This document shows, in pieces, positions 4,590-54,292 of a stretch of DNA of 64,000 nucleotides. Each line of letters starts with the position of its first letter. Position 1 is the first letter of the stretch. The translations under genes and the position numbers were made by a program. The notes beneath the pieces are model-generated. The model saw nothing but the letters and a program-made list of their open reading frames with translations. It did not search any database and was not told the origin of the DNA. Source of the stretch: Heteronotia binoei. Lineage: Eukaryota. The stretch is taken from positions 132,308,001-132,372,000 of the forward strand of contig NC_083226.1 in the NCBI RefSeq assembly GCF_032191835.1. The letters run 5' to 3'.

Positions 4590-6575
4590 AGGGTTCAGTG
4601 GCAGAGCATCTGCTTTGCATACAGAAGGTTCTAGGTTCAATACTCAATTTAAATAATAATAATAATTATTATTATTTTATTTCTATCCCGCCCTCCCCGC
4701 CGAAGCAGGCTCAGGGCGGCTCACAACATAAAATGCACTGTACATCAGTTATACTTATAAAAACATGGTTAAAACAAATTATAGATTATTAAAATTAACA
4801 TTTAACAATGTGGCGTTATAAACATTAGATCTTCAGTGGAATTCAGTGACTAAAAGCATTTTCAGCAGCATTTCCTAGCTTTGTCACTAGTTGAAGGCCA
4901 TCTTGAAAAGGTGGGTCTTACAGGCCCTACGGAATTGATCTAAGCATCGTAGGGCCCGCACCTCCTCAGGGAGTTGATTCCACAGCAGTGGAGCTGCGAC
5001 AGAGAAGGCCCGATCCCGGGTGGCCTTCAATCTGGCCTCCCTTGGCCCAGGGACATTCAGCTGGTTTTTTCCAGCTGACCTCAGTGCTCTCTGGGGCTCA
5101 TATGGGGAGAGACGGTCCCTCAGGTAGGTAGGTCCTCGGCCATATAGGGCTTTAAAGGTGATGACCAGCACTTTATAGCGAACTCGGTATGCCACTGGCA
5201 GCCAGTGCAGTCCGCGTAGCCCCGGCTGTATGTGCTCCCACCTTGGGAGCCCAGCAACAGCCTAGCCGCCGCATTCTGCACCAGCTGCAGCCGCCGAGTT
5301 CGGCACAAGGGCAGCCCCATGTAGAGGGCGTTGCAGTAGTCCAGTCTCGAGGTGACCGTAGCATGGATCACCATTGCTAGGTCACGGCGCTCCGGGAAGG
5401 GGGCCAACTGCTTCGCCCGTCAAAGATGAAAGAACGCGGACTTGGCAGCGGCCACTATCTGTGCCTCCATTGATAATGAAGGCTCCAGAAGAACCCCCAG
5501 GCTCTTGACCTTATGGGCTGCTTTCAGCAGCACACCGTCAAAGACCGGCAAGGGGATTTCCCTTCCCAGGGCACCGCGACCCAAGCAAAGGACCTCTGTC
5601 TTCGTTGGATTCAACTTCAGCCCGCTCAGTCTGAGCCAACCTGCCACGGCTTGCAGTGCTAGGTCCAGGTTTTCTGGGACGGAGCCAGGCCGGCCGTCCA
5701 TTAGTAGATAGAGCTGGGTGTCATCAGCATATTGATGGCACCCAAGCCCAAACCTCCGGGCAATCTGGGCAAGGGGGCGCATATAGATGTTAAACAACAT
5801 CGGGGAGAGAACTGCCCCTTGTGGCACCCCGCACACTAGTGGATGCCTCCGGGACCGCTCTCCCCCAATGGCCACCCTTTGTCCCCGTCCATCAAGGAAG
5901 GAGGAAAGCCACTGTAAGGCCAATCCCCCAATCCCTGCGTCGGCGAGCCGGTGGGCCAGTAGCTGATGATCGACCGTATCAAATGCAGCCGACAGATCCA
6001 ACAGTATCAGCACCACCACGCCGCCTCGATCCAGATGCCATTGGAGGTCATCCACCAAGGCGACCAGCACTGTCTCCGTCCCATAACCCGGATGAAAGCC
6101 GGACTGGTGGGAGTCTAAGGCGGAAGTGTCATCCAAAAAACTCTGCAACTGTGACGCCACTGCCCTCTCTATAACCTTACCTAAGAATGGTAGGTTTGAG
6201 ACCGGTCGATAGTTTGCCAATTCGGCCGGATCTGCTGTACTCTTTTTTTAGGAGAGGGCGGACCATGGCCTCTTTCAAAGATGTTGGAAATTGCCCTTCC
6301 AAGAGGGATCTATTTATGATATCCCGCACAGGATATCTAAGCTCCCTCTGGCAAGATTTAATTAGCCAGGAGGGGCATGGGTCAAGGTCGCAAGTTGTAG
6401 GACGTACAGTTGAGAGGATTTCGTCGACTTCCCCAAGACTAAGCGCGTCGAAGTGATCCAAGATAACATCAGAAGACAGGCACGGAGCCCCGGTAGTATG
6501 TGATAAGGTAGTATGTGATAAGAAAAACTGCAAACTAAGACTCCAAAGAGCCACTGCCAGCCAGAGTAGTCTCAT
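4590..6575 (+). mobile_element. tRNA(Ala-like)-derived SINE split by an L2 insertion (head 4590-4648, body 6507-6575)
   Basis: Head has A-box/B-box-like GTGGCAGAGC...GGTTCAATACT. Body GAGCCACTGCCAGCCAGAGTAG matches the contiguous reversed copy at 54075-54292. Confidence 0.65.
4650..6506 (-). mobile_element. L2-type LINE, 5'-truncated, reverse transcriptase with frameshifts
   Basis: ORFs 6177-6707, 5420-6220, 5120-5407 and 4887-5195 give YRPVSNLPFLGKVIE, LLDLSAAFDTVDH, GVPQGAVLSPMLF and QYADDTQLY. The 3' tail ends in GGGCGGGATAGAAATAAAAT(AAT)n. CpGs are retained. Confidence 0.9.
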
Positions 6576-8807
6576 GACACTTTCATCAGCCACAATCACC
6601 ATGAGAACTGAACTTAACGATATCTTACCAAAGCAAGTGTCGGAAGAAACACATGGGTGACTGGAAGAGTTTGTAATGAACATCTGTCCCCTCTTTGTGC
6701 TCAACATGTCCCACTACCAAGGCTGAGGAGAGCAAAGCCAGGAGGTGCAGTAAATGTCATCAGCCTGTGTTCCTTTAACACCATCGCCAGCACCTGGTAT
6801 CTCAATAACAGACTGCTTGGAGACCAGGCTAATCTCTTTCTGCTTCCAAAACTAGCAGACCACTAAGAAAATACACTTAGATATATTTAAAAAAACTTTT
6901 ATCCTTACAACAATATTGTCCACCTACCAGCTTATTAACCACTCTGAAAACCACTATATATATTAAATTATCAAAATTGTTCTGGGATTGTTTTCTTATT
7001 TATATACTAAGGCAAGGAGTGTCATATCTCTGTACAGAATTTTGCCTAGAAAGTTGGATACATAAATAAGTACAGGATATTACAGGACATGCCGCCTTTT
7101 ACTGCATGAAGTCACTGCAGGGATAGACGACAACGTGCAATTACAACACTAGATCATCTAGCATTGTACCCTACTCTGAAATCACAGGGTCAAGAGATAA
7201 TGCACTGTGGTTTCCATGACAGGAGCATTCAAGACATGCAGTCTGAACTGAATGTGTCTTGCCGGATGCATTCCCAACTTACATGAGGAACAGTCTACTT
7301 CAATTTTTATGACCTCATTGTATTTTAAAACAATCCCTTGAAAACAAATTCCAGAGACTTCTTAAAAAAAAAAAAAGGTACAGAAGCTAATGTAATTTTG
7401 CAATTCGCAACATATTTTTCCTGGTTCAGGTGCTGTTGCATTTTATACAGAAACTTTTTTTAAAGATGTCAGAACTACTGGAAACAATTTTTTACAAGAA
7501 GAAAAATGCAGCTGTTTTCTAACACAAACTTTAAAAGGTTAATATAAACTGAGTTTTCCTAAATGAAAATCGTAAGATGCACTTCAAAACATACAGACAA
7601 GAATTAAATATTATTGTGTAAAGAAACTACACAGCCAATTTGAATTTAGTTTTTACAAGAAAGACTACAAATAAAACACATCATTTCTGTGTAAACAAAC
7701 CTTAAGACATACTTATATTTTGTCATATATGTGAGAAGCTGCATTCAAACTGGGGTTTCTTATTACATAAAACAGGTATATTAATACACCATATAGAATG
7801 ACAAGCACGTGGAAAAATACAATTTCCTTGAAGAAGTGATGTCTATGCAAGAAACCTGATTCATGAGGATCAGTTCTAAAACTTTCAGAACTTTAGGTTG
7901 TATTGTCCAAAGCTTCTCTGCTAGCCTTGAGGAGGATAAATCTACATTCAGGCAATAGCAAATAACTTCACCAAGCAAATATCTAGACTGATACAAGCAA
8001 TACCAACAACCGGTTTCTTATTTACTGCATTTATACAGGAAGAACATCCAAAGGTATTCTCCTGTTGCTAAATTCTGCAAAATACCACTAATGTTTCAGC
8101 ACCACAGAGGTCTGTTGATGAATAACACCAATGTGTAAAAAGAAAAAAGAGGGGGGGGGGATGAATGCTTCCATCTTTTTCTGACAGTAGAAAGTTGGCT
8201 AGGATCTACTTTTATGATTTATAAAACACAAAAATCCATTAAAGGTAAAAAATTAATTCAGTAAAAATTATCAGGATAACTTCTTCATAAGGTTTAAGTC
8301 GTGTGGTCCCCACTATTTTAAGCACGCTGATAAAAAAGTCAAGTTTTTTTGTGTTTTTTTTTAAAAAGATGCATACAGGGACAGAAATGTTGGCAGCTTC
8401 TAATTCAGAGAACTCAGTCAGGATTTGTTTAATCAGTTTTTTTACCCAAAACTGTCTTCAAGCATTCTTAATAGTGCAATATTATTGAGTTTATTCCAGC
8501 CTAAGCATATTAAAATAAAAAAATATATAAAAAAATAAAAATAAAATCAGTGGGCTTTGACATTAATAGGATTATACTATGAATGTTTGACCTCCAAAGT
8601 ACTATAACTTATGACTTCCAATGAAAGTGCAACACGAGTCTGAAAGTACAACATGAGTCTGTTGGGCCTCAGAAATCCATAATTTTCTTATTTTCTCAGA
8701 CAGTTAGCTATTATCATTTCGCCAATGACTGAAGCATTAGTTAATTTACCTACACAAAACCAAATCTTATTTCATAAGGTTTTTTTGAAGATTATTCTTA
8801 ATAATTT

Positions 8808-15949: not shown

Positions 15950-16015
15950 ATGGTGATATGCTTCGGATGGAAACTACAAAGATTGATGATGTCAAAGAAA
16001 ACTTCCAAAAGAAAG
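15950..16015 (+). CDS. RAD17: RAD17, candidate first coding exon (ATG at 15950 or 15986)
   Basis: Polypyrimidine tract and AG at 15944-15945, donor AAG|GTAGCT. Open phase-0 frame (MVICFGWKLQRL)MMSKKTSKRK joins VVDWVEPSF, like the recalled human long isoform MSKTFLRPKVSSTK|VTDWVDPSF. Confidence 0.6.
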
Positions 16016-16409
16016 GTAGCTTCAGTTAAAGTGGGTGATATATATTAATAATGGTCTTTGGGTGTGACTCTTCTGCGTACAGATGTCCATGAGTGGACAG
16101 GGTTCATGCCTCTTATGCTTCTATAGAAGATTGTGACCTTGTGGGACTGAATGAACAGTACTTCACTGGCTGCTGAGCTGTGACTTGTAAACATCACTCA
16201 ACCTGCATTTTGTAAAGGTAGGATAAAATGGTCAGTCTTGCCCAACTGATTTGAGGCTATTGACATTAGAGTTCTATAGTATTGCATACTGAGCCTACTT
16301 ATGGGAAATAAGTTTGGTTGAATATGGTGTGACTTCATGCTAAATGAATATATTGAATTATCAAGGGACTGAAGAATGCTTTTGTTCTAAATGTTCATAA
16401 ACGGTTTCA

Positions 16410-17316: not shown

Positions 17317-20210
17317 GACCATTGGACAGGACCACCAGCAGTGTATAAACAAATCATCTCCCCCACAATTCTTCCAGCATAAGGAAGAAGTATGCGGCAA
17401 AATATAGTGCAACCTTTTGAGCATCAAATACTACTGGAACAGAATTTTTTGAGTAATCAGGAATGAGCTAGGAATAGCTCTAAATAAAAATAAAAATTTC
17501 GGAAAAATGAAGGATTTAATAATTTGAATTTTCTCATTCCAAGGAATAAAAGAAGACTTCCTATTCTTTTGCAAGCTAATTATATCATTATTTAAAAGAT
17601 GGTGATTGATTTTAAAAAATATCACTCAAGTTTATGGGAATATTCACCTCTAAATATGTCCAAAACTTATCAATCTTCTTAAAATGATAATTAGAATAAA
17701 TAAAGTCTCGAACAGTGTTAGATATTACCATGGGATATAAGATGGACTTAGATGAATTAGATTTAAGCCCAGAAATAGAAGCAAACAAAGATAGTAAATT
17801 TGCTATAGCCGTTAGTGAAGAATCAGGATTGGTTACAAAAAGTATCAAGTCATCTGCAAACAAAGAAAGTTTAATATGCTGGTTATTATATGTACCCCCA
17901 CAAATTCAGGAATGTTACGGAGAGCATTGACAAGAGGCTCAATTGCCAGAGCAAAAAGGAGGGGGGAAAGGGGACAGCCTTGCCTGGTGTCACAGGATAA
18001 CTGAAATTCTTCTGAATCTAAATTGTTGACATGAATAATAGCAGACAGGGAGTGGTATAAAGCGCGAATAATTTTGATAAATACCGGACCAAATTCCATC
18101 TTTTCCAACAGTTTGATAAGGTAAGGGGCTTCAACAGAATCAAAGGATAAAATAAAAGAAGAGTCTACATTGAATTTCCTACAATATTGTATAATATTGA
18201 GAACCTTTCTGGTATTATCAGTTAGTTCACGGTTCAGGATAAACCCAGATTGGTCAGAGTGAATGTAAGTCCCAATAAAGGTATTAAGACGTGAAACTAT
18301 AGCCGCTGTAAAGATTTTATAATCGCAGTTGAGAAGCGAAATAGGCCTATAGGAACTAGGTTCCAACAAGTCTTTGCCTTTCTTAGGGAGAACTATAATT
18401 TTTGCTTGAGACCAAGTGGCAGAAAAATTATTCGAAGTTACAAATTGATTACAAAAATCAGCTAGAGTAGGGGCCAACAAAGTGCTAAAAAATTCATAAA
18501 ACTCAGGAATAAATCCATCTCTGCCAGGCGATTTGTTGGGTTTTAATTATTTAATGGTCTCTTGAATTTCAAGTGCCGTGAATGGTTGCTCCAAGAAGGA
18601 TTAAATTGCTGAAGAAAGCGGTTTAAGATAGGAGTGAGATTGGAGTGAGTATCTAAAAAAGATTTAATAAGTTCAGGTGAGGGATGCTGAGACAAATATA
18701 AAACAATAATATTGTTTAAAGACACCCACAATGTCTTTAGCTGAATATTTCAAGGAGCCAGATATAGTCCGAATAGAAGGGACCGTCATTGAGGTTAATC
18801 TCTTTTTTACTTTCCATGCAAGAAGTTTGAGAAATTGAGGGGTTCGGAACCAGTACTTTTGTTTGACAAATGCTATTTGTTTCTGAATCTTGGAGACCTC
18901 TAACGAATCTAATTTTTTCCATTCTATAAGAAGATTTGAGTATACTTTTTTACTTCCGAACTTCCAACTTTTTGATGTTGGACAGCAACTCAGATCTAAT
19001 TCTCTCTTTTTCTTTTCTATATGAAGAGGCAATAGCCATGAACCTGCCCCAAATAACAGCCTTGAAGGAGTCCCAAACAGTATGTTGGGGAACCCCACAC
19101 TCCAAATTAAATTGAAAAAATTCCTTAATATCTGCTTCAATAGAATCAGTAACAGATTTCATTGGGAGAAGTTATTTGTCTCCAAGCAAATGAAGTCGAA
19201 TTTTGGCCCATTATGTTCAAACCTCCTTCCACTCAAGCATGATCAGACCAGATCATAGGACCAATGTCTACTTGAGAAAAAAGTTAGAAATGGAATCAGA
19301 AACTAGAAGAAAATCAATCCTAGAATAAGTCTGGTGCCTAGAGGAAAAAAAGGCATAATCTCTCTTTGTTTGGTGCTTGAGTCTCCATATATCACAAAGA
19401 TTGTAAGATTGCAAAATATCATATAAAGTGTTATGAGACATCAATCCCTGGGGCTGAGAACAAGATTTACCTGGAGAGGGTAGGGAACAAGATTTACCTG
19501 GTGAGATCTGTCAAGAGAAGGATTAATTACGTAGTTGAGATCCCCTCCCAAAATAATAGGACCAGTATGAAAGTTCCTCAGTTTTGAAAAAGTATCCTCT
19601 AGAAACACGATCTGACCCTCATTGGGCGTATATACTGACGCCATTGTATATTGATGTCCATTAAAAATCCCATTGACAAAAACATAATGTCCGCTTGGGT
19701 CAATCAGCGTATTTTCTAAAACAAAACAAACTGATTTGCTAATCAAAATAGCCACTCCTCGTGCTTTAGAAGACCCCGGAGCCTGAATTTGGTAAACAAA
19801 AAAATTTAATTGAAAAACATTAAAATGATTATTCTTGAGATGCGTTTCTTGCAAAAAAACTACATCCGGTTTTTGACGAGAGATGGCAGAAGCAAAGCAC
19901 TTTTAAAAATTAAATTATTTAAACCATTGCAGTTCAAAGATAGAAATTTCAATTGACACTCGGCCATTTAAAAGGAGAACAATAAGAATATCACAAATCA
20001 TAACTCTTACACAGTAAGAATTCAGTAGCCTCATGTTGGCTGCCAAAAATATGCCTTTTAAATAACGCATGACCTTCGAAGTAGTTGAAAAGTCCATGAA
20101 GGACTTGCCACGTAAGCCCTTTCTGCCAGCAAAAAAAATAAAAAATGCACATGTAAGAATTAAGAAGCACCCCCATAAATATTCCAAAATGTTGCCATAA
20201 ACTCACACTG

Positions 20211-20803
20211 TGTCATGGGTGCTGGGGACCCTTCAGAGGAAGTTGAGTCTGATGAGGAAACTGTGCCCCTGCCACCTGCACCAGTGCCCCTGCCTCCTGC
20301 TGGAGAAGATCCTAGCCCCCCTGCCTCGCCCTCTCGGGTGGCTCGTGTGCGTGACCGCCTCCGGCAGGACCTCAGGGATCGGAGGAGGGCGGCACGCTCA
20401 CAAGCAAGACGCTCCCTGAGCCCTGAGTTCTGAGAGGATTCTGGCCCTTCTAAGAGCAAGGATGCTTGAGTGGTAACAGGATCCTGGCTGCCTCCCTGAG
20501 CCAGCAATTAGCCCAAACGGGCAACAGCCAGCAGAGGGCTATATAGCTGTGGGCTTTGGGAGGAAGCTTTGTGGAAGCAACTAGTCATCTCCCTGACATT
20601 CTAGCATCCACTCCGGCTTGACTTTGGTTCCTGACTCCCTGACTTTGGCTTTGGACTTCTGGACTCCCTGACCTCGGCTTCTGGACCTCAGACCTGCGAT
20701 ACTTCTACAGTGATTCGGATTTGGCGCCTCGGACCCTCCTGCTTACTGGCTACAGACCTCGGACTGCCTCTGGACTTTGCCTGACCCGGCCCCAGCCGTG
20801 ACA
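20211..20803 (+). repeat. 5' LTR (593 bp)
   Basis: TGTCATGG...CCGTGACA with TATATA at 20540-20545. No difference from the 3' LTR found by eye. Confidence 0.96.
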
Positions 20804-20805
20804 GA

Positions 20806-20815
20806 TTGCTTCCAC
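20806..20815 (+). promoter_or_regulatory. Self-priming primer binding site (non-tRNA)
   Basis: TTGCTTCCAC, 2 nt after the LTR, is the exact reverse complement of GTGGAAGCAA at 20571-20580, 31 nt downstream of the TATA start. No TGG-type tRNA PBS. Confidence 0.8.
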
Positions 20816-20837
20816 CGACAAACACCCACTCCACAGG

Positions 20838-21728
20838 ATGGATGCTGAAGCAAGTGAAACCACAGAACTACTGGCTGCGCTCCAAGCCCAGGTACAGCAG
20901 CTAACACAGGCAGTAGTGCACTTGCAGCAACAACCTGCGGCCAGTGCTCCAGCCAAGTGCCCAGTTCCCCCACCTGACAGATTTGGGGGTGCCGTGGAAG
21001 AATTTCCTGCCTTCCTAGCACAGTGTCGGCTGTACTTTGAACTGAGAGCACGGGACTTCCTCAATGACAAAACCAAGGTGTGTTTCGTCATCAGTCTGTT
21101 AAAGGGGCAGGCGGCCAAATGGGCCACACCCTTACTGGTCGCGTCCTCTCCCCTACTGACTGATTACCAGGGGTTTGAGGCCCACCTGTCTGCTGCTTTC
21201 TCAAACCCAGTCCAAGCAGCCACAGCCAACCGGAAGATCAGGGCACTGAAACAAGGCAACTCCTCGGTGGCTCAATATGCCACTGAATTCAAGCTCCTGA
21301 CCCAGGACTTGGCGTGGAATGAGGCTGCCCAGATGGACCAGTTTACTGAGGGGTTGGCAGAGGAGGTCCTGGATGAACTGGCCAGGGTGGAGCAGCCACC
21401 CACGCTCCAAGAACTTATCACCCTCTGCCTCCGCATCGATGGCCGCCTGGAAAGTCGCCGCCAAGCCAAGACCAGAGGGCGCCAGCTCCCTGCGCCGTGC
21501 TACCTGGCTCCTCGCCCGTCCCCAGCTAGTACCAGCACCAAGGATGAGCCTATGCAGCTTGGAGCTGCTCGACCCCGCCTGACCCCAGAGGAAAAGACCA
21601 GACGCCGCACGCAGAATCTGTGCCTCTACTGCGGCACGGCAGGCCACTATGCCTCTGGCTGCCCTGCTAAGCATCGGATACCTGGACCTTCGCTGCCACC
21701 GCTGCCAAAAGGGCAGCCCCAGGCGTAA
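20838..21728 (+). CDS. Gag (capsid plus CCHC zinc knuckle), 296 aa
   Basis: Open ORF with N-terminal coiled coil, PDRFGG...FLAQC capsid region and [14 protein letters not shown] knuckle. Confidence 0.95.
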
Positions 21729-24700
21729 GTGGACCCCCCAGCCTGGGGCGACTAGCTGGGTCCTCCGAACAGCGGGCTGATACCCCAGGGCCATTCCTGC
21801 TACCAGTCAAACTCCGTCTGCCTGACGAACGCTGGCTGTTCGTGTATGCCATGCTGGACTCGGGAGCGGCCCACTGCTTTATAGATGCCGCCTTTGTGAA
21901 GCAGCACCAGATCCCTGTGCAGACAAAAGGGATTCCGTCGCTGGTGGAGGCTATTGACGGGCGCCTCCTCCGTTCTGGCCCCGTCACCCAGGAGACCTGT
22001 CCCATCACCTTCCACGTCCAGCAGCACCAAGAACAGCTGCGGTTTGATGTCGCCCGCATGCCTCGCTTCCCGCTGATTCTAGGCCTTTCCTGGCTGAAGC
22101 TGCACAACCCCATCGTGGACTGGGCCCAGCAGGAACTACGCTTCCGAGACCCATGCCCCCATCTGACTCCTCCCACCACTCTAGCAGCTGGCATCCCGAG
22201 TGGTGGTCCTCAGCTCCCTCAGAAGTATGTGGACTTTGCTGATGTCTTCGAAGAGACAGGAGCTGATCAGCTTCCCCCTCACCGGCCCTACGACTGTGCC
22301 ATTGATTTGGTACCTGGGGCACCACTCCCGGTGGGGCGTCTGTACCCAATGTCGGAGCCGGAGTTGGCAGCTCTGCGAGACTTCCTGGACAAGAACCTGA
22401 AACGCGGATTCATCCGACCCTCAACCTCTCCCCTATCTGCTCCAGTGCTCTTCGTGAAGAAGAAAAGTGGGGAGCTCCGGCTGTGCAATGACTACCGGGC
22501 CCTGAACAAGATCACCATCCGCAACCGGTACCCTCTACCACTGATCCCTGAACTCTTGGATCGCCTAAAGGGGGCCCAAATCTACACCAAGCTGGACCTC
22601 CGTGGAGCGTACAATTTGGTGCGCATACGGCCCGGAGACGAATGGAAGACCGCGTTTGGGACCCGATACGGGCAGTACGAGCACCTGGTAATGCCCTTCG
22701 GACTGACCAATGCCCCCGCTGTCTTCCAGAGGTTCATGAATGACATATTCCGGGACCTGCTCGACCGCTTCGTGATCATATACCTGGATGACATCCTAAT
22801 TTACTCCCGCAATCCTGCCCAGCACGCCGAGCACGTCCGCCAGGTCCTGCAGCGCCTACGAGCCCATGGTCTCTACGCCAAGCTGGAGAAGTGCGACTTC
22901 GACCTGCGCTCCGTCGAGTTCCTTGGGCACATTGTGTCACCGCAGGGGATCCTCATGGACCCGAAAAAAGTAGAAGCGGTCCTGACCTGGCAGGCTCCTC
23001 AGAATCGCAAAGACCTGCAGCGGTTCCTCGGTTTTGCCAACTACTATCGGCAATTCATCCCGGCCTACGCATCCCTGACCACACCCCTGACTCAACTACT
23101 CCGCCCCAAAGAACCCTTCCACTGGTCCCCAGAGGCCGATAACGCCTTCTCCACCCTGAAGACTCGCTTTGCCACCGGGCCACTCCTGAGATACCCCGAC
23201 CCCCAGCTTCCCTTTACGGTGGAAGCTGATGCCTCCAACGTGGCCCTGGGAGCAGTCCTGTCCCAGCGCGAGGAGCCGTCCCAGCCACTGCAGCCCTGCG
23301 CCTATTACTCGCGGCAGCTCACTGCTGCAGAGAGGAACTATACCATCTGGGAGAGGGAGTTGCTCGCGATCAAGGCGGCGTTTGAGGTTTGGCGACATTA
23401 CCTCGAAGGGGCTCGCCACCCTGTTCAAGTGCTCACCGATCACCGGAACTTGGAACACCTCCAGACCACCCGCCGTCTCAACCAGCGCCAGATCCGGTGG
23501 TCCCTATTCTTCTCTCGCTTCGACTTCCGGATCTCCTACATCCCCCATACCCAGAACCGGAAAGCAGACGCGCTCTCCCGGAAACCGGAATACGCCCCTG
23601 CCTCAACTGAGACCGCGCCCGCTGCTCCAATCCTGCCGCCCTCAGTATTTGCAGCCACCTCCACTTCACCAGCACTCGTGGAGGACATTCGGGCTAGCCA
23701 GGCCAATGATCCCTGGGTCCAGCAACACCTCCAGGCTCTCCAAGATGACCCAACAGGGGAGTTCACGACTCGAGGCGGCCTCTTGCTACACCGCGAACGC
23801 CTCTATGTGCCGCCCGGGCCCTTGCGGGCAGAAGTGCTACGCCTGACCCACGACTCGTTACCCGCCGGGCACTTTGGACAGCATAAGACCACCCACTTGC
23901 TGACAAGGGAATTCTGGTGGCCACGAGTTCGCGCTGATGTTGCCCGCTATGTCAGCTCCTGTGACGTCTGCCGACGGGCCAAAGACATCCCAGCCAAACC
24001 CTCAGGGTTGCTGCAGCCCTTGCCCACATCTTCAGGACCCTGGGATACCATCTCGATGGACTTCATCACGGAACTTCCACGCTCCAAGGGTCAGACTTGT
24101 ATCTGGGTGGTCGTCGACCTATTTACCAAGATGGCCCACTTTGTTCCGTGCCCGAAACTCCCCACAGCTCAGGAGACGGCCCAGCTTTACCTGCAACACA
24201 TCTTTCGTCTGCATGGACTCCCAGCCCATCTGATCTCCGATCGGGGCCCTCAGTTCTCCTCTCGGTTCTGGCAAGCCCTCCATTCCAGCCTGGGTACTCG
24301 AGTGCACCTGTCCTCGGCCTACCACCCACAGACAGATGGCCAGACAGAGCGCACCAATGCCACGCTAGAGCAATATCTCCGCTGTTACACCTGTTACCAG
24401 CAGGATGACTGGACCACTCTATTGCCCCTAGCGGAGTTTGCATACAACAACGCGGTCCATTCATCCACCCAAATGACCCCGTTTGCTGCAACCTACGGGT
24501 ACCACCCTCGGTTCTTCCCAGCGATCCTACCACCCACGAATGTCCCCGCCGTCGATGCCTACCTGCAAGAACTCCGTGCCAGCCAAGACTTGCTCCGAGA
24601 GCAGCTACAGCAAGCCAAGGAGGCATATAAACGGGCTGCGGACCGAAAGAGGCAAGAAGGCCCTCCAGTGCAGCCGGGGGATCAGGTGTGGCTCTCAACT

Positions 24701-25357
24701 CGCTACCTGCGCCGGCCTGGTCGGTCTCACAAGCTGGATGCACGGTTCATTGGACCCTACCCCGTCGTTGAACAAATAAACCCCGTCGCCTTCAGGCTCC
24801 AGTTGCCACCCCACCTCCGCATTCACCCCGTGTTTCATCGCTCCCTCCTAGTTCCGGCTGCACCCCCTGACCCAGCTCGGACTCCTTCCCCACCGCCGCC
24901 ACCACCAGTGTTGGTGGATGACGAGGAAGAATATGAGGTGCGCCAGATCCTGGACTCCCGGTACCATCGTGGAGGCCTCCAGTACCTGGTGGACTGGGAG
25001 GGATACGGCCCAGAAGACCGGTCTTGGGAGCCCGAGGACAATCTTCATGCCCCGGACTTGGTGCACCAGTTCCACAACGACCACCCCGACCTTCCAGGTC
25101 CCTCGACGGAGGGGGGCCCTGGGGGGGGGGATAGTGTCATGGGTGCTGGGGACCCTTCAGAGGAAGTTGAGTCTGATGAGGAAACTGTGCCCCTGCCACC
25201 TGCACCAGTGCCCCTGCCTCCTGCTGGAGAAGATCCTAGCCCCCCTGCCTCGCCCTCTCGGGTGGCTCGTGTGCGTGACCGCCTCCGGCAGGACCTCAGG
25301 GATCGGAGGAGGGCGGCACGCTCACAAGCAAGACGCTCCCTGAGCCCTGAGTTCTGA
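21671..25357 (+). CDS. Pol polyprotein (protease, RT, RNase H, integrase, chromodomain), -1 frame relative to gag
   Basis: Frame open from 21671 (ORF track starts at 21842). Motifs [42 protein letters not shown] and [12 protein letters not shown]. Confidence 0.95.
25108..25134 (+). promoter_or_regulatory. Polypurine tract
   Basis: GGAGGGGGGCCCTGGGGGGGGGGATAG immediately before the 3' LTR. Confidence 0.8.
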
Positions 25358-25727
25358 GAGGATTCTGGCCCTTCTAAGAGCAAGGATGCTTGAGTGGTAA
25401 CAGGATCCTGGCTGCCTCCCTGAGCCAGCAATTAGCCCAAACGGGCAACAGCCAGCAGAGGGCTATATAGCTGTGGGCTTTGGGAGGAAGCTTTGTGGAA
25501 GCAACTAGTCATCTCCCTGACATTCTAGCATCCACTCCGGCTTGACTTTGGTTCCTGACTCCCTGACTTTGGCTTTGGACTTCTGGACTCCCTGACCTCG
25601 GCTTCTGGACCTCAGACCTGCGATACTTCTACAGTGATTCGGATTTGGCGCCTCGGACCCTCCTGCTTACTGGCTACAGACCTCGGACTGCCTCTGGACT
25701 TTGCCTGACCCGGCCCCAGCCGTGACA
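25135..25727 (+). repeat. 3' LTR (593 bp)
   Basis: Same sequence as 20211-20803, followed by CACTG. Confidence 0.96.
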
Positions 25728-26016
25728 CACTGCCCATAACTTGAACAAGTAAGAACCAATTCCAGTGGCTTAACATGAAAAGCCACCAACCACGAAAAAC
25801 ATCAACACTTTTTGCTAACCCCAGATAGGGAAAACAACAGTCAATATTTGTGAGTATGTATGTAATTGAGCATACAAAAAAGTAAAGACTCACTTCAAGA
25901 AGCTCCACTTAAAAATTAACAACAAAGTTATAAGAACAAAGCTATAAGAAAAGCCAAAAGTCAATGTACACAGGTATATTTAAATTTGAACTATAAAAAT
26001 ATAAAGACTTCATTAG

Positions 26017-26400
26017 GGTTTGTAGAATCTTTCGGGCTCAAGTGCTGTGTTCTACTGGAGAAAATTTTTCTTCCAGACGTTTCGTTCTCAGCTGCGGAGA
26101 ACATCCTCAGTGGCGTTGCAGCCGGAGCAGGCGCTCTGACCTTCTTGGCTGCTGTGCATTGAGTGGGGCCAAGGCTGCTGGAGAGCTGCTATTTCTAGGC
26201 TGGAGAGGGTGTGATTAAAGGGCAATTGGTTTGTGGATGTGCCCATTGTTTGGTGGAGCTTCCTGGAAGGGTAGTGATAAGGAAACTGGCTGTTGAATGT
26301 GACCATTGTTCTGTGTTAATTGCTGGGAGGGTTGGAAGGGGTGTGAAGATAAGGAAGATGGTTGTTGACTGTGCTGATTGTTCTGTGGAATGTGCTCGAC
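26017..26400 (-). mobile_element. Penelope-like element fragment inserted in the L1 inter-ORF spacer
   Basis: Contains the GAAACGTC-type hammerhead typical of Penelope pseudo-LTRs. Composition differs abruptly from the flanking L1. Boundaries approximate. Confidence 0.7.
26073..26113 (-). ncRNA. Minimal type I hammerhead ribozyme motif, intact core
   Basis: Minus strand: CCA-CTGAGGA-T-GTTCTC(CGCAGCT)GAGAAC-GAAA-CGTC-TGG. GUC cleavage triplet, palindromic ACGT stem III, stem I CCA/TGG. Confidence 0.82.
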
Positions 26401-28607
26401 TCAAACAGCAAAATGGAGCTATAAGAAAATCCGAAAGTCTCCGTTTCCCCTCCCTCCCATACCACAATATACAATTAATACAGATGTTATTTTTAACAGC
26501 CCAGCTTTTACACATTTTAAAGAAAAATATGCATAAATTTTAAACTGCCATCCCCCCCTTCCTTTAGCCGTGTGGACCTTTCATATAAAACCTTTTCCAA
26601 TTATAGAACATTTCCTTACATGAAGAAGCAAGAATCACACAACCAACCTCCCATTGCTAACATAGTTGGTCACAAACATCCATACAACAGCCTGAGTTTC
26701 AACAAGCCTATATATTTCCACAAGAAATTTCTAACCCCAACTGAGTTTATTGGCATAACCATACCCACCCACCTCAAAATTTCCAGAGATTTCATACAAG
26801 CTGAAAAGAAAATTCATCACACATCCAAACTCCTATTCTTACAGGTTTAAAACAAATTACCAGCATCCCAAACACTCTCTCTCTAGCATGCATACCAGAC
26901 AAATAAATAAGCAATCATAAATTTCATTATATTTCCAGACAAAACATTATCTCCTAACCATTTTTTCACACCACATAACATTAATTCCAAAGATTTCATA
27001 AAAGTTAAAAGAGAGTTCGACACACACCCAGACACACATTCTTCCAGAAGTAAATCAGAGTACCAATCACTCAGTCTCAACCAGCCATATCAGATAAATG
27101 AATAAACAATCCAAAATTTCATTGTATCTCCAGATAAAATAATATATCATAACCACTCTTTCACACCCCACATCATACATTTCTCATTCAAAACCACACC
27201 TCCAACAGTCATTCCTACAGCATCAGACAACATATTCATTTGACTTATATTACATAGTTAATACCATACATTTCTAGCCTCAATATACACAACACAGACA
27301 TAACGTACAAGGTACACCAAGAGAATTTGCTGTCATAATCACTCAGTTTAAGCATACCAGAGAACAAACTTGAAACATATATACCCAAACAAGCCAGCAA
27401 AAGTACATTCATAACTCTACCGTTGCATAATGTTTGAAGAGGAAGAGTCTTTATCTGACAAGAAAACAGATTCAACAGTTCAACTGCTAGGAATTGCAGG
27501 ACGAATAGGTCTATTCATAGGGACACGTCGCCATCTAGTGTTGAAAGACAGTGGGTGTTCCTGGGAGGCTGCTTCCAACAGTTCATCAGGAACGTGGAGT
27601 TTCAAGTTTCAAGTCATGTAGCAAGCCGATTCCAGATCCCAAGCCATAAATGTTTGATCTTGAATTATGACTTGCAATTTATAAAAAGCAATCCAGCGAT
27701 ACTGAATGTTCTCCTTATTCAGAATCTCAATAATTGGTTTCATAGTCCTAAGTCTCTGCAGAATTTCAGCTGACAAATCTTGCAAAATTTGCGTAGAAGC
27801 CTTGCGTAGAAGCTTGGCTTTAGTGGAAACGGTTGAAAAGTGGACTAGAATGTCTCACGGTTGAAAAGTGGACTAGAAGTCTTCTGCCTATGGATGGGGC
27901 CGATTCTATAAGCAGCTTCTAAAGTACCCAGTTCTAACTTGGAGAAGCCCAGCTCTTTTGATAGCCATTCATTAATAAGTCCTTTCAAGTCATTAGGAGA
28001 AGCTGAGTTCTCAGGGAGTCTGTGAATTTTAACGTTCCCCACTTTTAACTGGTTTTCAAGCATGATGATTTGTATCTGTAGCCCATTCTTCACGCTTGTA
28101 AAAATATTGTGTATCGTCTTGAGACATATTAAAAGCAGAGTCGGCCGTCTCCGCCACTTTTTCTAGAGAAGCTTGAAAAACTACCAGTTGGGCAGAAAGT
28201 GGCTGTATCATTGCAGATATTTTATCAGTCATATTAGTTTCCAAATTTTTAAAAGCTTTCATTACTTCTGATCGAAAAGCAGCAAGTTCATCTGACACAG
28301 TTTTCCCTCCTCCTGACGCCATTTTCTCAGATGAATTGGATGCCGCTCTCAGGGCCTTAGATCTGGGTCCTTTTGGAAAATAGTCCTTCACGGAGCCTTT
28401 TTGGTTTCTTTTTGCCTTTGCCTTTGCCTTTTGGCCTTCAGACGTTCCCATGCTATTTGCAAGTAAAAATCAGCGTAGCAGATGACGCTGGGCACTGTGG
28501 TGGTTAGGATTACAGGAGGCAAACGCGGAGCTTCGCTTTCAGGCGTCCATCTCCTAAGCCCGTGATGCCATGCCCCCCCACGAACCTTTTTTATTATTGT
28601 TGTGGAG

Positions 28608-28892
28608 GAGAGCCAGTTTGATGTAGTGGTTAAGCGTGCGGACTCTTATCTGGGAGAACCGGGTTTGATTCCCCACTTCTCCATTTGCAGCTGCTGGAAT
28701 GGCCTTGGGTTAGCCATGGCTTTCGCAAGAGTTGTCCTTGAAAGGGCAGCTTTTGTGAGAGCTCTCTCAGCCCCACCCACCTCACAGATTATCTATTGTG
28801 GGGGAGGAAGATATAGGAGATTGTAAGGCACTCTGAGGCTCTGATTCAGACAGAAGGGCAGGGTATGAATCTGAATTATTCTTCTTCTTCAC
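28608..28892 (+). mobile_element. tRNA-derived SINE
   Basis: GAGAGCCAGTTTGATGTAGTGGTTAAG...GGTTTGATTCCCC head and (CTT)n tail. Confidence 0.85.
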
Positions 28893-28928
28893 TAAGATGA
28901 GCAGTGAAATAATGCTTGCATTTTTCAG

Positions 28929-29183
28929 GTGGTTGACTGGGTGGAGCCATCTTTCACTGATTTCTGCAAGAGTACAAATTCCTCATCTAGTATCCTTCCC
29001 AAGAAGACGCCCACAGAAACTAATCTCCATCAGAAAAAAAAAGAGCATTTTTCTCGCCTGGAAAGCGGCAAGAGTGGGAGAAGAAAAGAGAAATCTTCTT
29101 CTAGAGATGAGAGAGATCACATTCCAAGACAGAATTGCAAAGAAATTGAACCATGGGTGGATAAATACAAACCAAAAACTCAG
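28929..29183 (+). CDS. RAD17: RAD17 exon (255 nt)
   Basis: VVDWVEPSF...EPWVDKYKPKTQ with TTTTCAG| and |GTGAAA. Confidence 0.93.
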
Positions 29184-30118
29184 GTGAAATTCAGTTTCTA
29201 ATTCCCTTTATAATACTAATTAAAAGTTACTTACTGAAGTGGCAACAAAACTCCCAGCTTATGAAGAATATTGTAAAGATATCTTACTGGTAAGAAGAAA
29301 ATGTTGTGTTTTGTGTCATGATTTAAGAGATCAGGATGGAAAAATGGAATTGAAATAAATTAGAATGGATTCAAAATATTATTCCTATTGTTGGAATGCA
29401 GATATTTGGAATGTTTTGCATTAAGCTGCTTTATTAATTTGTTACTAAAACATCACAACCTACAGTGAAATAAAATGGTTACCCTCACTTGCAATTTAGT
29501 AGTTTCTGATAGTTTAGAGGCTTAAATCATAGATAAGACCATTACTTAGTTTATTTACTGATGAAGGCATTTTATGAAGCCCTTTATTAGTGTTAGACAG
29601 GTGCAAATTATTCACACAAAGTCTGCACCATAAATGTTCAGGACTAATTGGATTATTTTCCTGGGTATTACTTGGAATTCTTGAACAATTAACCCAAATT
29701 CTAGGTTTGAGTCCAGATCAGATTGCTGTGCTGTGATCATAGCAGTGATATTAATTGCTGTAGATGTGAGCCTGCAACCATGGTCCTCCCTTCTACCAAG
29801 AAAAGTCAGGACGGTACAGTTTGTAGTTTAAAGGCTACAATTGGCTTCATATCCTGGACTTTGCTGAAAATGGTCACAAACTGGGGTTCTTCTGGGCCTC
29901 GATCAGTGTCAGGTGATCTGGGTGAATCTCAAATTGCTAGAATCCAGTCTAAACTGTTCCACATAGGTTAGGAACCCTGAATCTCATTATGAATTGAAAA
30001 CATCTATTTATTTAAAAAATTCAGGGCCTTTTGTAAAGTTCCATATTATATTTAACTATACAATTATGTCTTTTAATAATCAAATGTGCATACTTCTAAT
30101 GTTTTTCTTCTTTATTAG

Positions 30119-47239: not shown

Positions 47240-48290
47240 CAGTAGGCAGGTCCCAGGCCATATAGGACTTTAAACGTTGTGACCAGCACCTTGAAGCAAA
47301 TATGGAATGCCACAGACAGTCAGTGTAACGTTTCCAGCACAGGTTGAATGTGCTACCATACAGGTAGCTCCATTAACAACCTGGTTGTTGCGTTTTGCAC
47401 CAGTTGCAGCCTCCAGATTTGAGTCAAGGGCCTCCAAATTTGAGTCAAGGGCAGCCTTATGTAGAGGGCATTGCAGTAGTCTAGTCTTGAGATGGCCATC
47501 ACATGGATCACTGTTGCCAAGTCGTTGCACTCCAGGTATGGAACCAGCTGTCTTATCCGCCTAAGGTGGTGAAATGCGGATTTGGCAGTGGCTGCTACCT
47601 GGGTCTCCATTGTCAGCAAAGGCTCCAGGAACACCCCTAAGCTCTTGACCTTTGGAGCTGACACCAGTGGTGTCCCATCAAAGGCTGGCAGAAGGATCTG
47701 TCTATCCAGGCCGCTGCGACTTAGACATAGGACCTCTATCTTCACTGGATTCAATTTCAGCCAACTTTGCCTGACCCATTTCGCTACAGCTGGCAATGCC
47801 AGGTCCAGATCTTCCAGGGTGCAGCTGGACTGGTCTCCCATCAATAGATAGAGCTGGGTGACATCCACATACTGGTGACAACCCAGTCCTTATCTCTGGA
47901 CAATCTGGACAAGGGAGTGCATGCAGATGTTAACAACATCGGGGAGAGAACTGCCCCTTGAGGCACACCACATACAAGTGGGTGCCTCTGGGACGATTGC
48001 TCCCCTATAGTCACCCTTTGTCCCCGGCCTTGGATAAAAGAGGTAAGCCGTTGAAGGGCAGACCCTGAATCCCCGTGTCGGCGAGGCTGGTTGACTGTAT
48101 CAAACACAGCCGACAGATCTAACAACAACAGCACTGCCAAGCCGCCCTGATCCAGATGTCTCAAGAGATCATCCATGAGGGCAACCAGTACCATCTCCGT
48201 CCCATGGCCCAGATGGAAGTTGGACTGAAATGGGTCTAAGATGGAAGCGTCATCCAAAAATCCCTGTAACTATACTGCCACCGTGTAGTG
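47240..48290 (-). mobile_element. L2 LINE fragment
   Basis: LLLDLSAVFDTV, GVPQGAVLSPML, KLNPVKIE and SRLDYCNALY. Same family as 4650-6506 but more decayed. Confidence 0.85.
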
Positions 48291-54074: not shown

Positions 54075-54292
54075 AATATATGAAGCTGCCTTATACTGAA
54101 TCAGACCCTTGATCCATCAAAGTCAGTATTGTCTACTCAGACTGGTAGTGGCTCTCCAGGGTCTCAAGCTAAGGTTTTTTATGTCTACTTGCCTGGACCA
54201 TTTTTAGTTGGAGCTGCCGGGGATTGAACCTGGGAGTGGACCTTCTGCTTACTAAGCAAATGCTCTACCACTGAACCACCAACCGTCCCTTA
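54075..54292 (-). mobile_element. tRNA-derived SINE, second family
   Basis: Minus strand GGTTCAGTGGTAGAGCATTTGC...GGTTCAATCCCCGGCAGCTCC head. Same family as the split copy at 4590. Confidence 0.75.

Follow-up and report, generated by a model that had tools for sequence, protein, structure and literature searches.

Among vertebrate retrotransposons, sushi-ichi of pufferfish, attributed to Butler et al. in 2001, is reportedly a chromovirus of the Tf1/sushi type, and a full-length chromodomain Gypsy element of Anolis is said to have been described by Piskurek et al. in 2009. Here, we analyzed a 64,000-nucleotide stretch of the genome of the gecko Heteronotia binoei (contig NC_083226.1, positions 132,308,001 to 132,372,000; the whole stretch is called the window, and coordinates refer to it) and found that positions 20206-25732 hold an intact Ty3/Gypsy chromovirus of the Tf1/sushi type without an env gene, one of the hundreds of young copies that this genome contains. 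An excerpt of PMC3670739 states that full-length Metaviridae, including chromoviruses, persist in reptiles and not in birds or mammals, in line with an earlier note on this DNA, made from the sequence alone, that had called the lineage lost as a mobile element in mammals; Metaviridae and chromoviruses are treated as still active in reptiles in the consulted part of PMC11011659. Further background came from portions of PMC3601003, PMC5381603, PMC10379679, PMC2864245, and a Euleptes preprint. By itself, the element is a member of a kind already known in reptiles. The rarity implied by the earlier note does not hold, given the hundreds of such copies in the genome and the full-length reptile chromoviruses already described. 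A literature search turned up neither this gecko family nor its burst; Butler 2001, Piskurek 2009, Kordis 2009, or Repbase may describe them.

Structure of the element

The element has the TG...CA ends of its long terminal repeats (LTRs), the short target-site duplication, and the order protease (PR), reverse transcriptase (RT), RNase H (RH), integrase (IN) of Ty3/Gypsy retrotransposons, and the open reading frame (ORF) list leaves no room within it for an additional ORF of env size. Its features are as follows (U3, the 5' part of the LTR).

20206..20210, no strand: left target-site duplication, CACTG; a single CACTG stands at the uninterrupted paralogous site in L164, a copy of the flanking repeat
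20211..20803, plus strand: 5' LTR, 593 bp, TGTCA...TGACA
20540..20546, plus strand: TATA box TATATAG of a putative promoter; a like box lies at equal spacing in an older gecko family (see below)
20571..20580, plus strand: predicted RNA 5' end and self-primer segment, complementary to the primer-binding site
20806..20815, plus strand: primer-binding site (PBS), apparently of the self-priming type, with no TGG start
20838 (ATG)..21728 (stop), plus strand: gag, 296 amino acids; DUF4939, Retrotrans_gag, and Ty3_capsid in Pfam
21671..25357, plus strand: pol, 1228 amino acids from stop to stop; PR-RT-RNase H-IN-SH3/GPY-chromodomain-U3-encoded tail
21704..21763, plus strand: candidate -1 frameshift signal; non-canonical heptamer G_CCA_AAA, 5-nt spacer, 9-bp stem
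24929..25078, plus strand: type I chromodomain at the integrase C terminus (PF00385, E 2.1e-14)
25111..25134, plus strand: polypurine tract (PPT), read in frame by pol
25133..25357, plus strand: integrase tail, 74 codons in the U3 of the 3' LTR; acidic/Pro-rich half, then Arg-rich half with RRAARSQA at 25307
25135..25727, plus strand: 3' LTR, 593 bp, letter for letter the same as the 5' LTR
25728..25732, no strand: right target-site duplication, CACTG

Most of what the earlier note had read by eye was borne out. The two LTRs proved 100% identical, CACTG is perfect on both sides, and gag and pol are stop-free, with pol in the -1 frame relative to gag. All catalytic motifs are present: DSG in the protease (at 21854), YLDD in the RT (at 22781), every acidic residue of the RNase H, and HHCC and the D-D(35)E spacing in the integrase, which also has the GPY module. 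Pfam matches on pol comprise protease, RT, RNase H, integrase, a Tf2-type SH3, and the chromodomain, and pol, with the order PR-RT-RH-IN and an RT closest to Ty3, matches Ty3 Gag-Pol (E 5.5e-149). In gag, a CCHC knuckle at 21621 gives a weak Pfam match, and the best solved relative is PEG10 (E 5.7e-17). Aligned with HP1, the chromodomain places Y, W, and Y on Y, W, and F, at what we take to be the three cage positions of HP1. Three aromatic-cage residues define the type I chromodomain in the consulted part of PMC3059260. The CpGs, which the note had called undecayed, stand at an observed/expected ratio (o/e) of 0.58 in the element versus 0.27 in the remaining window; that this sets the element apart from neighbouring repeats is only mostly true, as two of the eight repeat stretches measured are similarly rich (0.63 and 0.51). 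The former, at 4887-6713 on the minus strand, contains RT-like ORFs and has a diverged copy near 47430-48281.

A recent expansion in several subfamilies

The earlier note had proposed to determine copy number and identity in the assembly. Exact matches numbered 707 for the junction of LTR end and PBS, 1,071 for the PPT/LTR junction, and 3,470 for the LTR start, with 0 matches for each of the three reversed-pattern controls; these counts are lower bounds, and the LTR-PBS pattern misses at least one subfamily (L142, L147). Sampling went by position and took the 72 leading sites of the 707, on contig C1. Seven of these were excluded: three belong to a tandem array, three lacked another complete LTR within the retrieved range, and one was a duplicate. 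This left 65. The LTRs of one element are identical at integration, and 37 of the 65 pairs still carry no substitution, 36 of them no indel either. Perfect 5-bp target-site duplications flank 63 of the 65 copies; the gag and pol core is open in 48, and in 32 the tail is in frame as well.

The window copy's subfamily accounts for 39 of the 65 copies and has a mean LTR divergence of 0.00065. Three more subfamilies, 5-6% apart, each have LTR-identical members, and pairwise distances between subfamilies shift along the element, a mosaic pattern that suggests template switching or recombination during replication. Over 4,924 bp, the nearest sister, L031, differs from the window copy by one run length and 2 substitutions, each of them a CpG transition; these two copies and L034 form a derived sublineage with six derived variants in common. 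The very recent insertion in an amniote that the note had proposed is thus supported by the distance to L031 and by the subfamily mean. Across copies, LTR divergence forms a continuum from 0 to 20 substitutions, and of the 139 substitutions between paired LTRs, 63 are CpG transitions, as methylated DNA would predict. At assumed rates of 1-4e-9 per site per year, the subfamily mean corresponds to 0.08-0.3 million years (My) and the split from L031 to 0.05-0.2 My, while the window LTR pair alone (0/593 differences) gives only an upper bound of about 0.6-2.5 My; sequencing error would turn these figures into overestimates. Both LTRs of single copies have copy- or subfamily-specific variants in common, with up to 40 differences from the window LTR and none between the pair. 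Such private variants make assembly collapse, which the note had named as a possible source of LTR identity, unlikely. Among variants present in at least 3 copies, omega is 0.11 in the pol core and 0.32 in gag.

Along C1, 98 sites are evenly spread (coefficient of variation of the gaps, 1.06). Centromere targeting was considered and rejected for this contig, on which the insertions are dispersed. The target sites of 92 copies display a weak symmetric preference for C at position 1 (36/92) and G at position 5 (37/92). A hand count of the first 100 LTR starts on C1 sorted them into some 31 elements with both LTRs and some 37 LTRs without a partner, or about one solo LTR per full element. At C1:26,944,000-26,960,000 (L065, L066), three internal units with common LTRs form a head-to-tail array at 4,924-bp spacing; 5 sites distinguish two of the units, and the match to the outermost LTR begins only at position 64. 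L096 and L097 (C1:67.79 and 67.86 Mb) have equal target duplications and equal LTR differences, which indicates a local segmental duplication rather than two insertions.

The genome also holds an older, decayed chromovirus family (L131-L136, L138), which has about 70-73% DNA identity to the window family, shares its primer segment, and has a homologous tail in U3 that ends in RSLSPEF. Five of its PPT-LTR junctions lie at about 30-kb spacing at C6:36.60-36.73 Mb (L133, L134), which suggests a tandem segmental repeat.

An integrase tail encoded in the LTR

No stop interrupts pol before the 3' LTR; the frame crosses the PPT and runs 74 codons into U3, covering its first 222 bp. Tail variants found in at least 3 of 95 copies comprise 14 synonymous and 14 non-synonymous changes in the pol frame (omega 0.45, p 0.027), versus omega values of 2.7 and 1.2 in the other two frames of the same stretch and about 1 in the remaining LTR. 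Singleton variants show no constraint, and one subfamily has a 9-bp in-frame insertion in the tail. Against five older-family copies, the last 38 aligned codons are identical at 0.53-0.63, 0.58-0.74, and 0.32-0.37 of first, second, and third positions, respectively, and 11-15 of the 17-23 identical residues between the two gecko families use different codons. The tail is very probably under coding constraint.

Proteins from Podarcis (P0104) and Anolis (P0109, P0111) as well as P0150 keep the same register across the PPT-LTR junction (G-D-[SG]-V) and continue into acidic-then-basic tails, whose LTR location is deduced from this junction motif in the protein. The Podarcis tail ends in RRSARLKA and the Anolis tail in RRSARIAA, each matching at 7 of 8 residues either the HMGN consensus RRSARLSA or RRSARIAT of yeast Dot5, a demonstrated binder of the nucleosome acidic patch (consulted part of PMC13347269). 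The full RRS-[AS]-R-[LI] core occurs in 3 of 120 relatives, all squamate, and is absent from the window tail. The motif of the window tail, RRAARSQA, aligns with that of Podarcis (an equally good score arose in 5 of 1,000 shuffles) and keeps Arg at HMGN positions 1, 2, and 5, differing from the consensus at 3 of 8 positions. Among the 110 chromodomain relatives displayed, most end about 30-60 residues past the chromodomain, several have Arg-rich ends without acidic halves, and the long acidic-then-basic tail with an RRS-A-R motif is confined to squamate proteins. The tail alone has no relatives in Pfam, the ESM atlas, a 90% protein set (39-126 amino acids), or 1.84 billion representatives. Our literature search, whose reach did not extend to subscription papers, Repbase, and supplements, found no report of a U3-encoded tail in vertebrate chromoviruses. 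The role of the gecko tail would most likely be nuclear entry or chromatin tethering beside the chromodomain. That such tails act as acidic-patch anchors somewhere in the squamate clade is possible, somewhat short of an even chance as judged from the motifs, and for the window's gecko family it appears unlikely.

Predicted self-priming and frameshifting

The 10 nt at 20806-20815, just after the 5' LTR, are complementary to 20571-20580, which lie 31 nt past the TATA box at 20540. As a chance control, 35 of 5,000 random internal 18-mers had such a complement anywhere in the LTR. The primer segment has one variant among 95 copies, and the PBS has no substitution in them, 56 of the 95 having been picked by a pattern that contains the PBS. 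In the older family, the segment is kept in six of seven LTRs, with one change in the seventh, and lies at equal spacing from a TATA-like box although the intervening bases have diverged. With the start site placed by its spacing from the TATA box, the PBS would pair with the RNA 5' end, as in Tf1-type self-priming. This layout is described for Tf1 and implicated in vertebrate elements in the consulted part of PMC4600332. In the Tf1/sushi group, the primer arises by cleavage of the element's own RNA (in part after the same portion of PMC4600332).

In the gag/pol overlap, G_CCA_AAA sits 5 nt ahead of a 9-bp stem (21716-24/21741-49), a spacing as in PEG10-type signals (excerpt of PMC11299033), and a possible second stem (21731-36/21758-63) could create a pseudoknot. 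Heptamer and stems vary little among the 95 copies, and -1 frameshifting may take place at this site.

Insertion into a LINE within RAD17

Gypsy chromovirus and RAD17, as named in the earlier note, are the right identifications: the element carries the chromodomain PF00385 and lies between two RAD17 coding exons, on the same strand as the gene. One RAD17 exon of the window matches the Heteronotia binoei protein at 100% identity, with other geckos coming next, and this protein maps exon by exon to 15950-53249 on the plus strand. The surroundings of the insertion comprise the following.

15950..16015, plus strand: RAD17 coding exon upstream of the insertion, from protein-to-DNA mapping
17400..20205 (limits approximate), minus strand: left part of the host repeat, a decayed, apparently L1-like long interspersed nuclear element (LINE), with an endonuclease domain at 19444-19902
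25733..27780, minus strand: right part of the host repeat, which continues the same LINE in its paralogs L163 and L164
about 28929..29183, plus strand: RAD17 coding exon downstream of the insertion, from protein-to-DNA mapping

The L1-like label of the host repeat was read from its domains. L164 is uninterrupted across the site and has one CACTG, which proves that the duplication at the element is genuine and that the LINE came first and the chromovirus later. L163 aligns to both flanks; the junction motif search gave no output for it. Between the host LINE and its paralogs, divergence is about 9%, which the inserted chromovirus does not show. Since the copy sits deep in the intron, within an older LINE, and its 593-bp LTR contains neither AATAAA nor ATTAAA as a poly(A) signal, the location in RAD17 is probably incidental.

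Within the host LINE, RNA read depth at 25916-26483 is 100-350x, far above the surroundings, with a shared loose end at 26010, suggesting that related LINE copies are strongly transcribed. At 16015-16033, a possible second splice donor 18 nt downstream would add 6 residues (VASVK-like), comparable to the Eublepharis RAD17 protein. ARAGORN predicted a tRNA-Thr at 54209-54286 (minus strand) beside a LINE-like repeat; it may be derived from a short interspersed nuclear element (SINE).

Transcripts and competing explanations

The RNA data comprised three raw runs (two samples, about 6% of each) and one contig set, under one species label. Reads cover the whole element at low depth and in both directions. 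For the subfamily check, 21 of the 40 best-supported variant rows, of 690 in total, were used. At diagnostic sites, the letter of other subfamilies was found in 68/68 (23029), 59/59 (24316), 29/29 (24214), and 41/43 (22041) reads; some sites were mixed, such as 23440 (39/66). RNA from these two other samples hence carries almost no alleles of the window copy's subfamily, which is either lineage-restricted and missing from those animals or silenced in the tissues sampled. In run X1, 3 of the 257 bases of the contig for the RAD17 exon are different, indicating that at least that animal is somewhat diverged.

The account that we consider highly probable is a recent insertion of a Tf1/sushi chromovirus, during a burst of several subfamilies, into an old LINE that lies in an intron of RAD17, with the U3 tail kept by selection. 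An env-less chromovirus of autonomous type would have entered the LINE in the course of this large burst, and the family may be active at present. Pol II would start about 30 nt past the LTR TATA box; the RNA 5' end would fold back on the PBS and prime reverse transcription without a tRNA; one RNA would yield Gag and, through a -1 frameshift, Gag-Pol; and the PPT would prime the plus strand. Integrase would then create the 5-bp duplications at dispersed sites, and the first 222 bp of U3 would double as coding sequence for an integrase tail under selection.

Several results weigh against parts of this account, beginning with the scarcity of the subfamily's alleles in the RNA. The reads have no start-site peak in the LTR, in libraries that behave as unstranded. 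No empty allele was seen among the displayed RNA rows over 20804-29300, of which a SINE and one other repeat account for the larger part (a further 698 loose-end rows and 33 joint rows lie outside the displayed set), nor did the displayed rows contain chimeric joints between element and RAD17. The 40 scored flank matches included only paralogous LINE copies and no second haplotype of the locus. As to priming, the PBS and the primer segment show no compensatory change, with none of seven older-family copies fetched having an intact 5' LTR plus PBS, and the leader fold is not unusually stable (z 0.26). The gag/pol overlap contains no canonical X_XXY_YYZ slippery heptamer. Run-length variation in the PPT puts the tail out of frame in 29 of the 95 copies, and one 4-copy lineage has a shifted tail state in common, so the tail may be dispensable or supplied in trans. 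Its basic half alone has no significant synonymous excess within the family (4 synonymous, 5 non-synonymous, p 0.3), similarity between the Anolis tails and that of the gecko is not significant (167 and 706 of 1,000 shuffles scored as well), and the Anolis protein P0112 stops before the PPT. The older gecko family breaks the motif (R-[HY]-E-A) and lacks the Arg pattern at positions 1, 2, and 5, which speaks against an HMGN-like role.

Alternatively, the burst may have been recent but is now silenced, its copies being intact merely because too little time has passed for decay. The uniform reads at 23029, 24316, and 24214, although the window subfamily makes up 39 of the 65 sampled copies, would fit silencing, as would the CpG transitions that make up both differences from L031 and a large part of the LTR substitutions. 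The same read pattern is, however, expected if the sampled animals lack the subfamily, and four subfamilies with LTR-identical members, together with the derived three-copy sublineage, point to serial, continuing replication; we hold silencing to be a tentative possibility. An old insertion whose LTRs owe their identity to assembly collapse or gene conversion is highly improbable: homopolymer length differences suggest some sequencing error, and conversion could have acted on one copy, but the interior of the element is no older than its LTRs, private variants recur in both LTRs of a pair, divergence across copies forms a continuum, and the host LINE has diverged from its paralogs while the insert has not.

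For the tail, the rival to selection is incidental read-through into stop-poor, GC-rich DNA, with promoter elements accounting for the conservation. The same part of U3 has another frame without stops for about 69 codons, nearly a third of copies are out of frame, and the database searches were empty; yet different codons for identical residues and near-random third positions are unexpected under constraint at the DNA level, omega is 2.7 and 1.2 in the other two frames, and the register at the PPT-LTR junction is the same in four lineages. We regard incidental read-through as improbable. A closer contender, nearly even in our judgment, is that the tail is coding but serves as a nuclear localization signal or generic nucleic-acid-binding helix rather than as a nucleosome acidic-patch anchor. 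RRAARSQA is without two HMGN consensus residues, the older family keeps the basic helix and the RSLSPEF end despite its broken motif, and Arg-rich ends without acidic halves recur in other relatives; on the other side stand the 7/8 matches in Podarcis and Anolis and the alignment of the gecko motif on that of Podarcis.

Comparison with known systems

RT-RNase H identity to the gecko element is 86% for the Gekko protein (P0116), 73% for Podarcis, and 66% for Anolis. A quick tree of 102 RT-RNase H rows, leaving out rows with short matches such as Rhineura P0115, united six squamate rows (SH-aLRT 87), so that Anolis P0109/P0111, Podarcis P0104, and Gekko P0116 form one clade with the gecko element; its rows, which contain neither sushi-ichi nor Tf1, place the element beside chromovirus proteins of squamates, frogs, and fishes. 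With the squamate rows together, this tree gave no sign of horizontal transfer. Two Anolis clusters hold 366 and 94 member sequences, indicating that multicopy relatives with open frames are not peculiar to this gecko. Podarcis and Anolis chromoviruses have the same in-frame read-through from PPT to U3 as the gecko element, but the squamate tails diverge, with an HMGN-like motif that is nearly perfect in the Podarcis and Anolis proteins and degenerate in the gecko element.

What lifts this element above the ordinary is the scale and youth of its burst, the near-absence of its subfamily from the RNA of other samples, and the conserved LTR-encoded integrase tail. Such a tail would show that, across lizards, an LTR can act as promoter and encode protein at once; should the tail bind the acidic patch, it would be a retrotransposon mimic of a host chromatin motif. 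The likeness of the gecko tail to the HMGN/Dot5/Dsup motif (consulted part of PMC13347269) is one of sequence. Taken furthest, squamate chromoviruses might carry an LTR-written second chromatin reader, an HMGN-mimicking Arg anchor gripping the acidic patch, in a gecko family that is still expanding and whose largest subfamily is confined to one lineage of the species; we think this rather unlikely. If true, the reader would be the vertebrate counterpart of the LTR-encoded targeting motif of plant CRM elements. In CRM group A, coding sequence likewise reaches into the 3' LTR and a CR motif replaces the chromodomain (excerpt of PMC3059260). The gecko element is alike in layout and not a member of that group; CRM targets centromeres without a chromodomain, whereas the gecko tail follows an intact type I chromodomain and the C1 insertions are evenly spread. 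This comparison is by description.

With Tf1/sushi chromoviruses, the gecko element has in common gag followed by PR-RT-RH-IN-chromodomain, no env, a PBS complementary to the predicted RNA 5' end, and a PEG10-related capsid; its likeness to sushi-ichi is by description. PEG10 and the RTL genes of mammals derive from this group, which later became extinct in mammals. Several hundred intact, LTR-identical copies in a lizard make its biology observable in an amniote, from insertion polymorphism and silencing to self-priming and frameshifting. The capsid of gecko gag is homologous to that of PEG10/RTL (Mart/Sirh), and both join gag and pol by a -1 frameshift with a downstream structure (for PEG10, excerpt of PMC11299033; for the gecko element, predicted). 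PEG10/RTL are, however, single-copy host genes that use GGGAAAC, whereas the gecko element is multicopy, is bounded by LTRs, and has G_CCA_AAA at its putative site.

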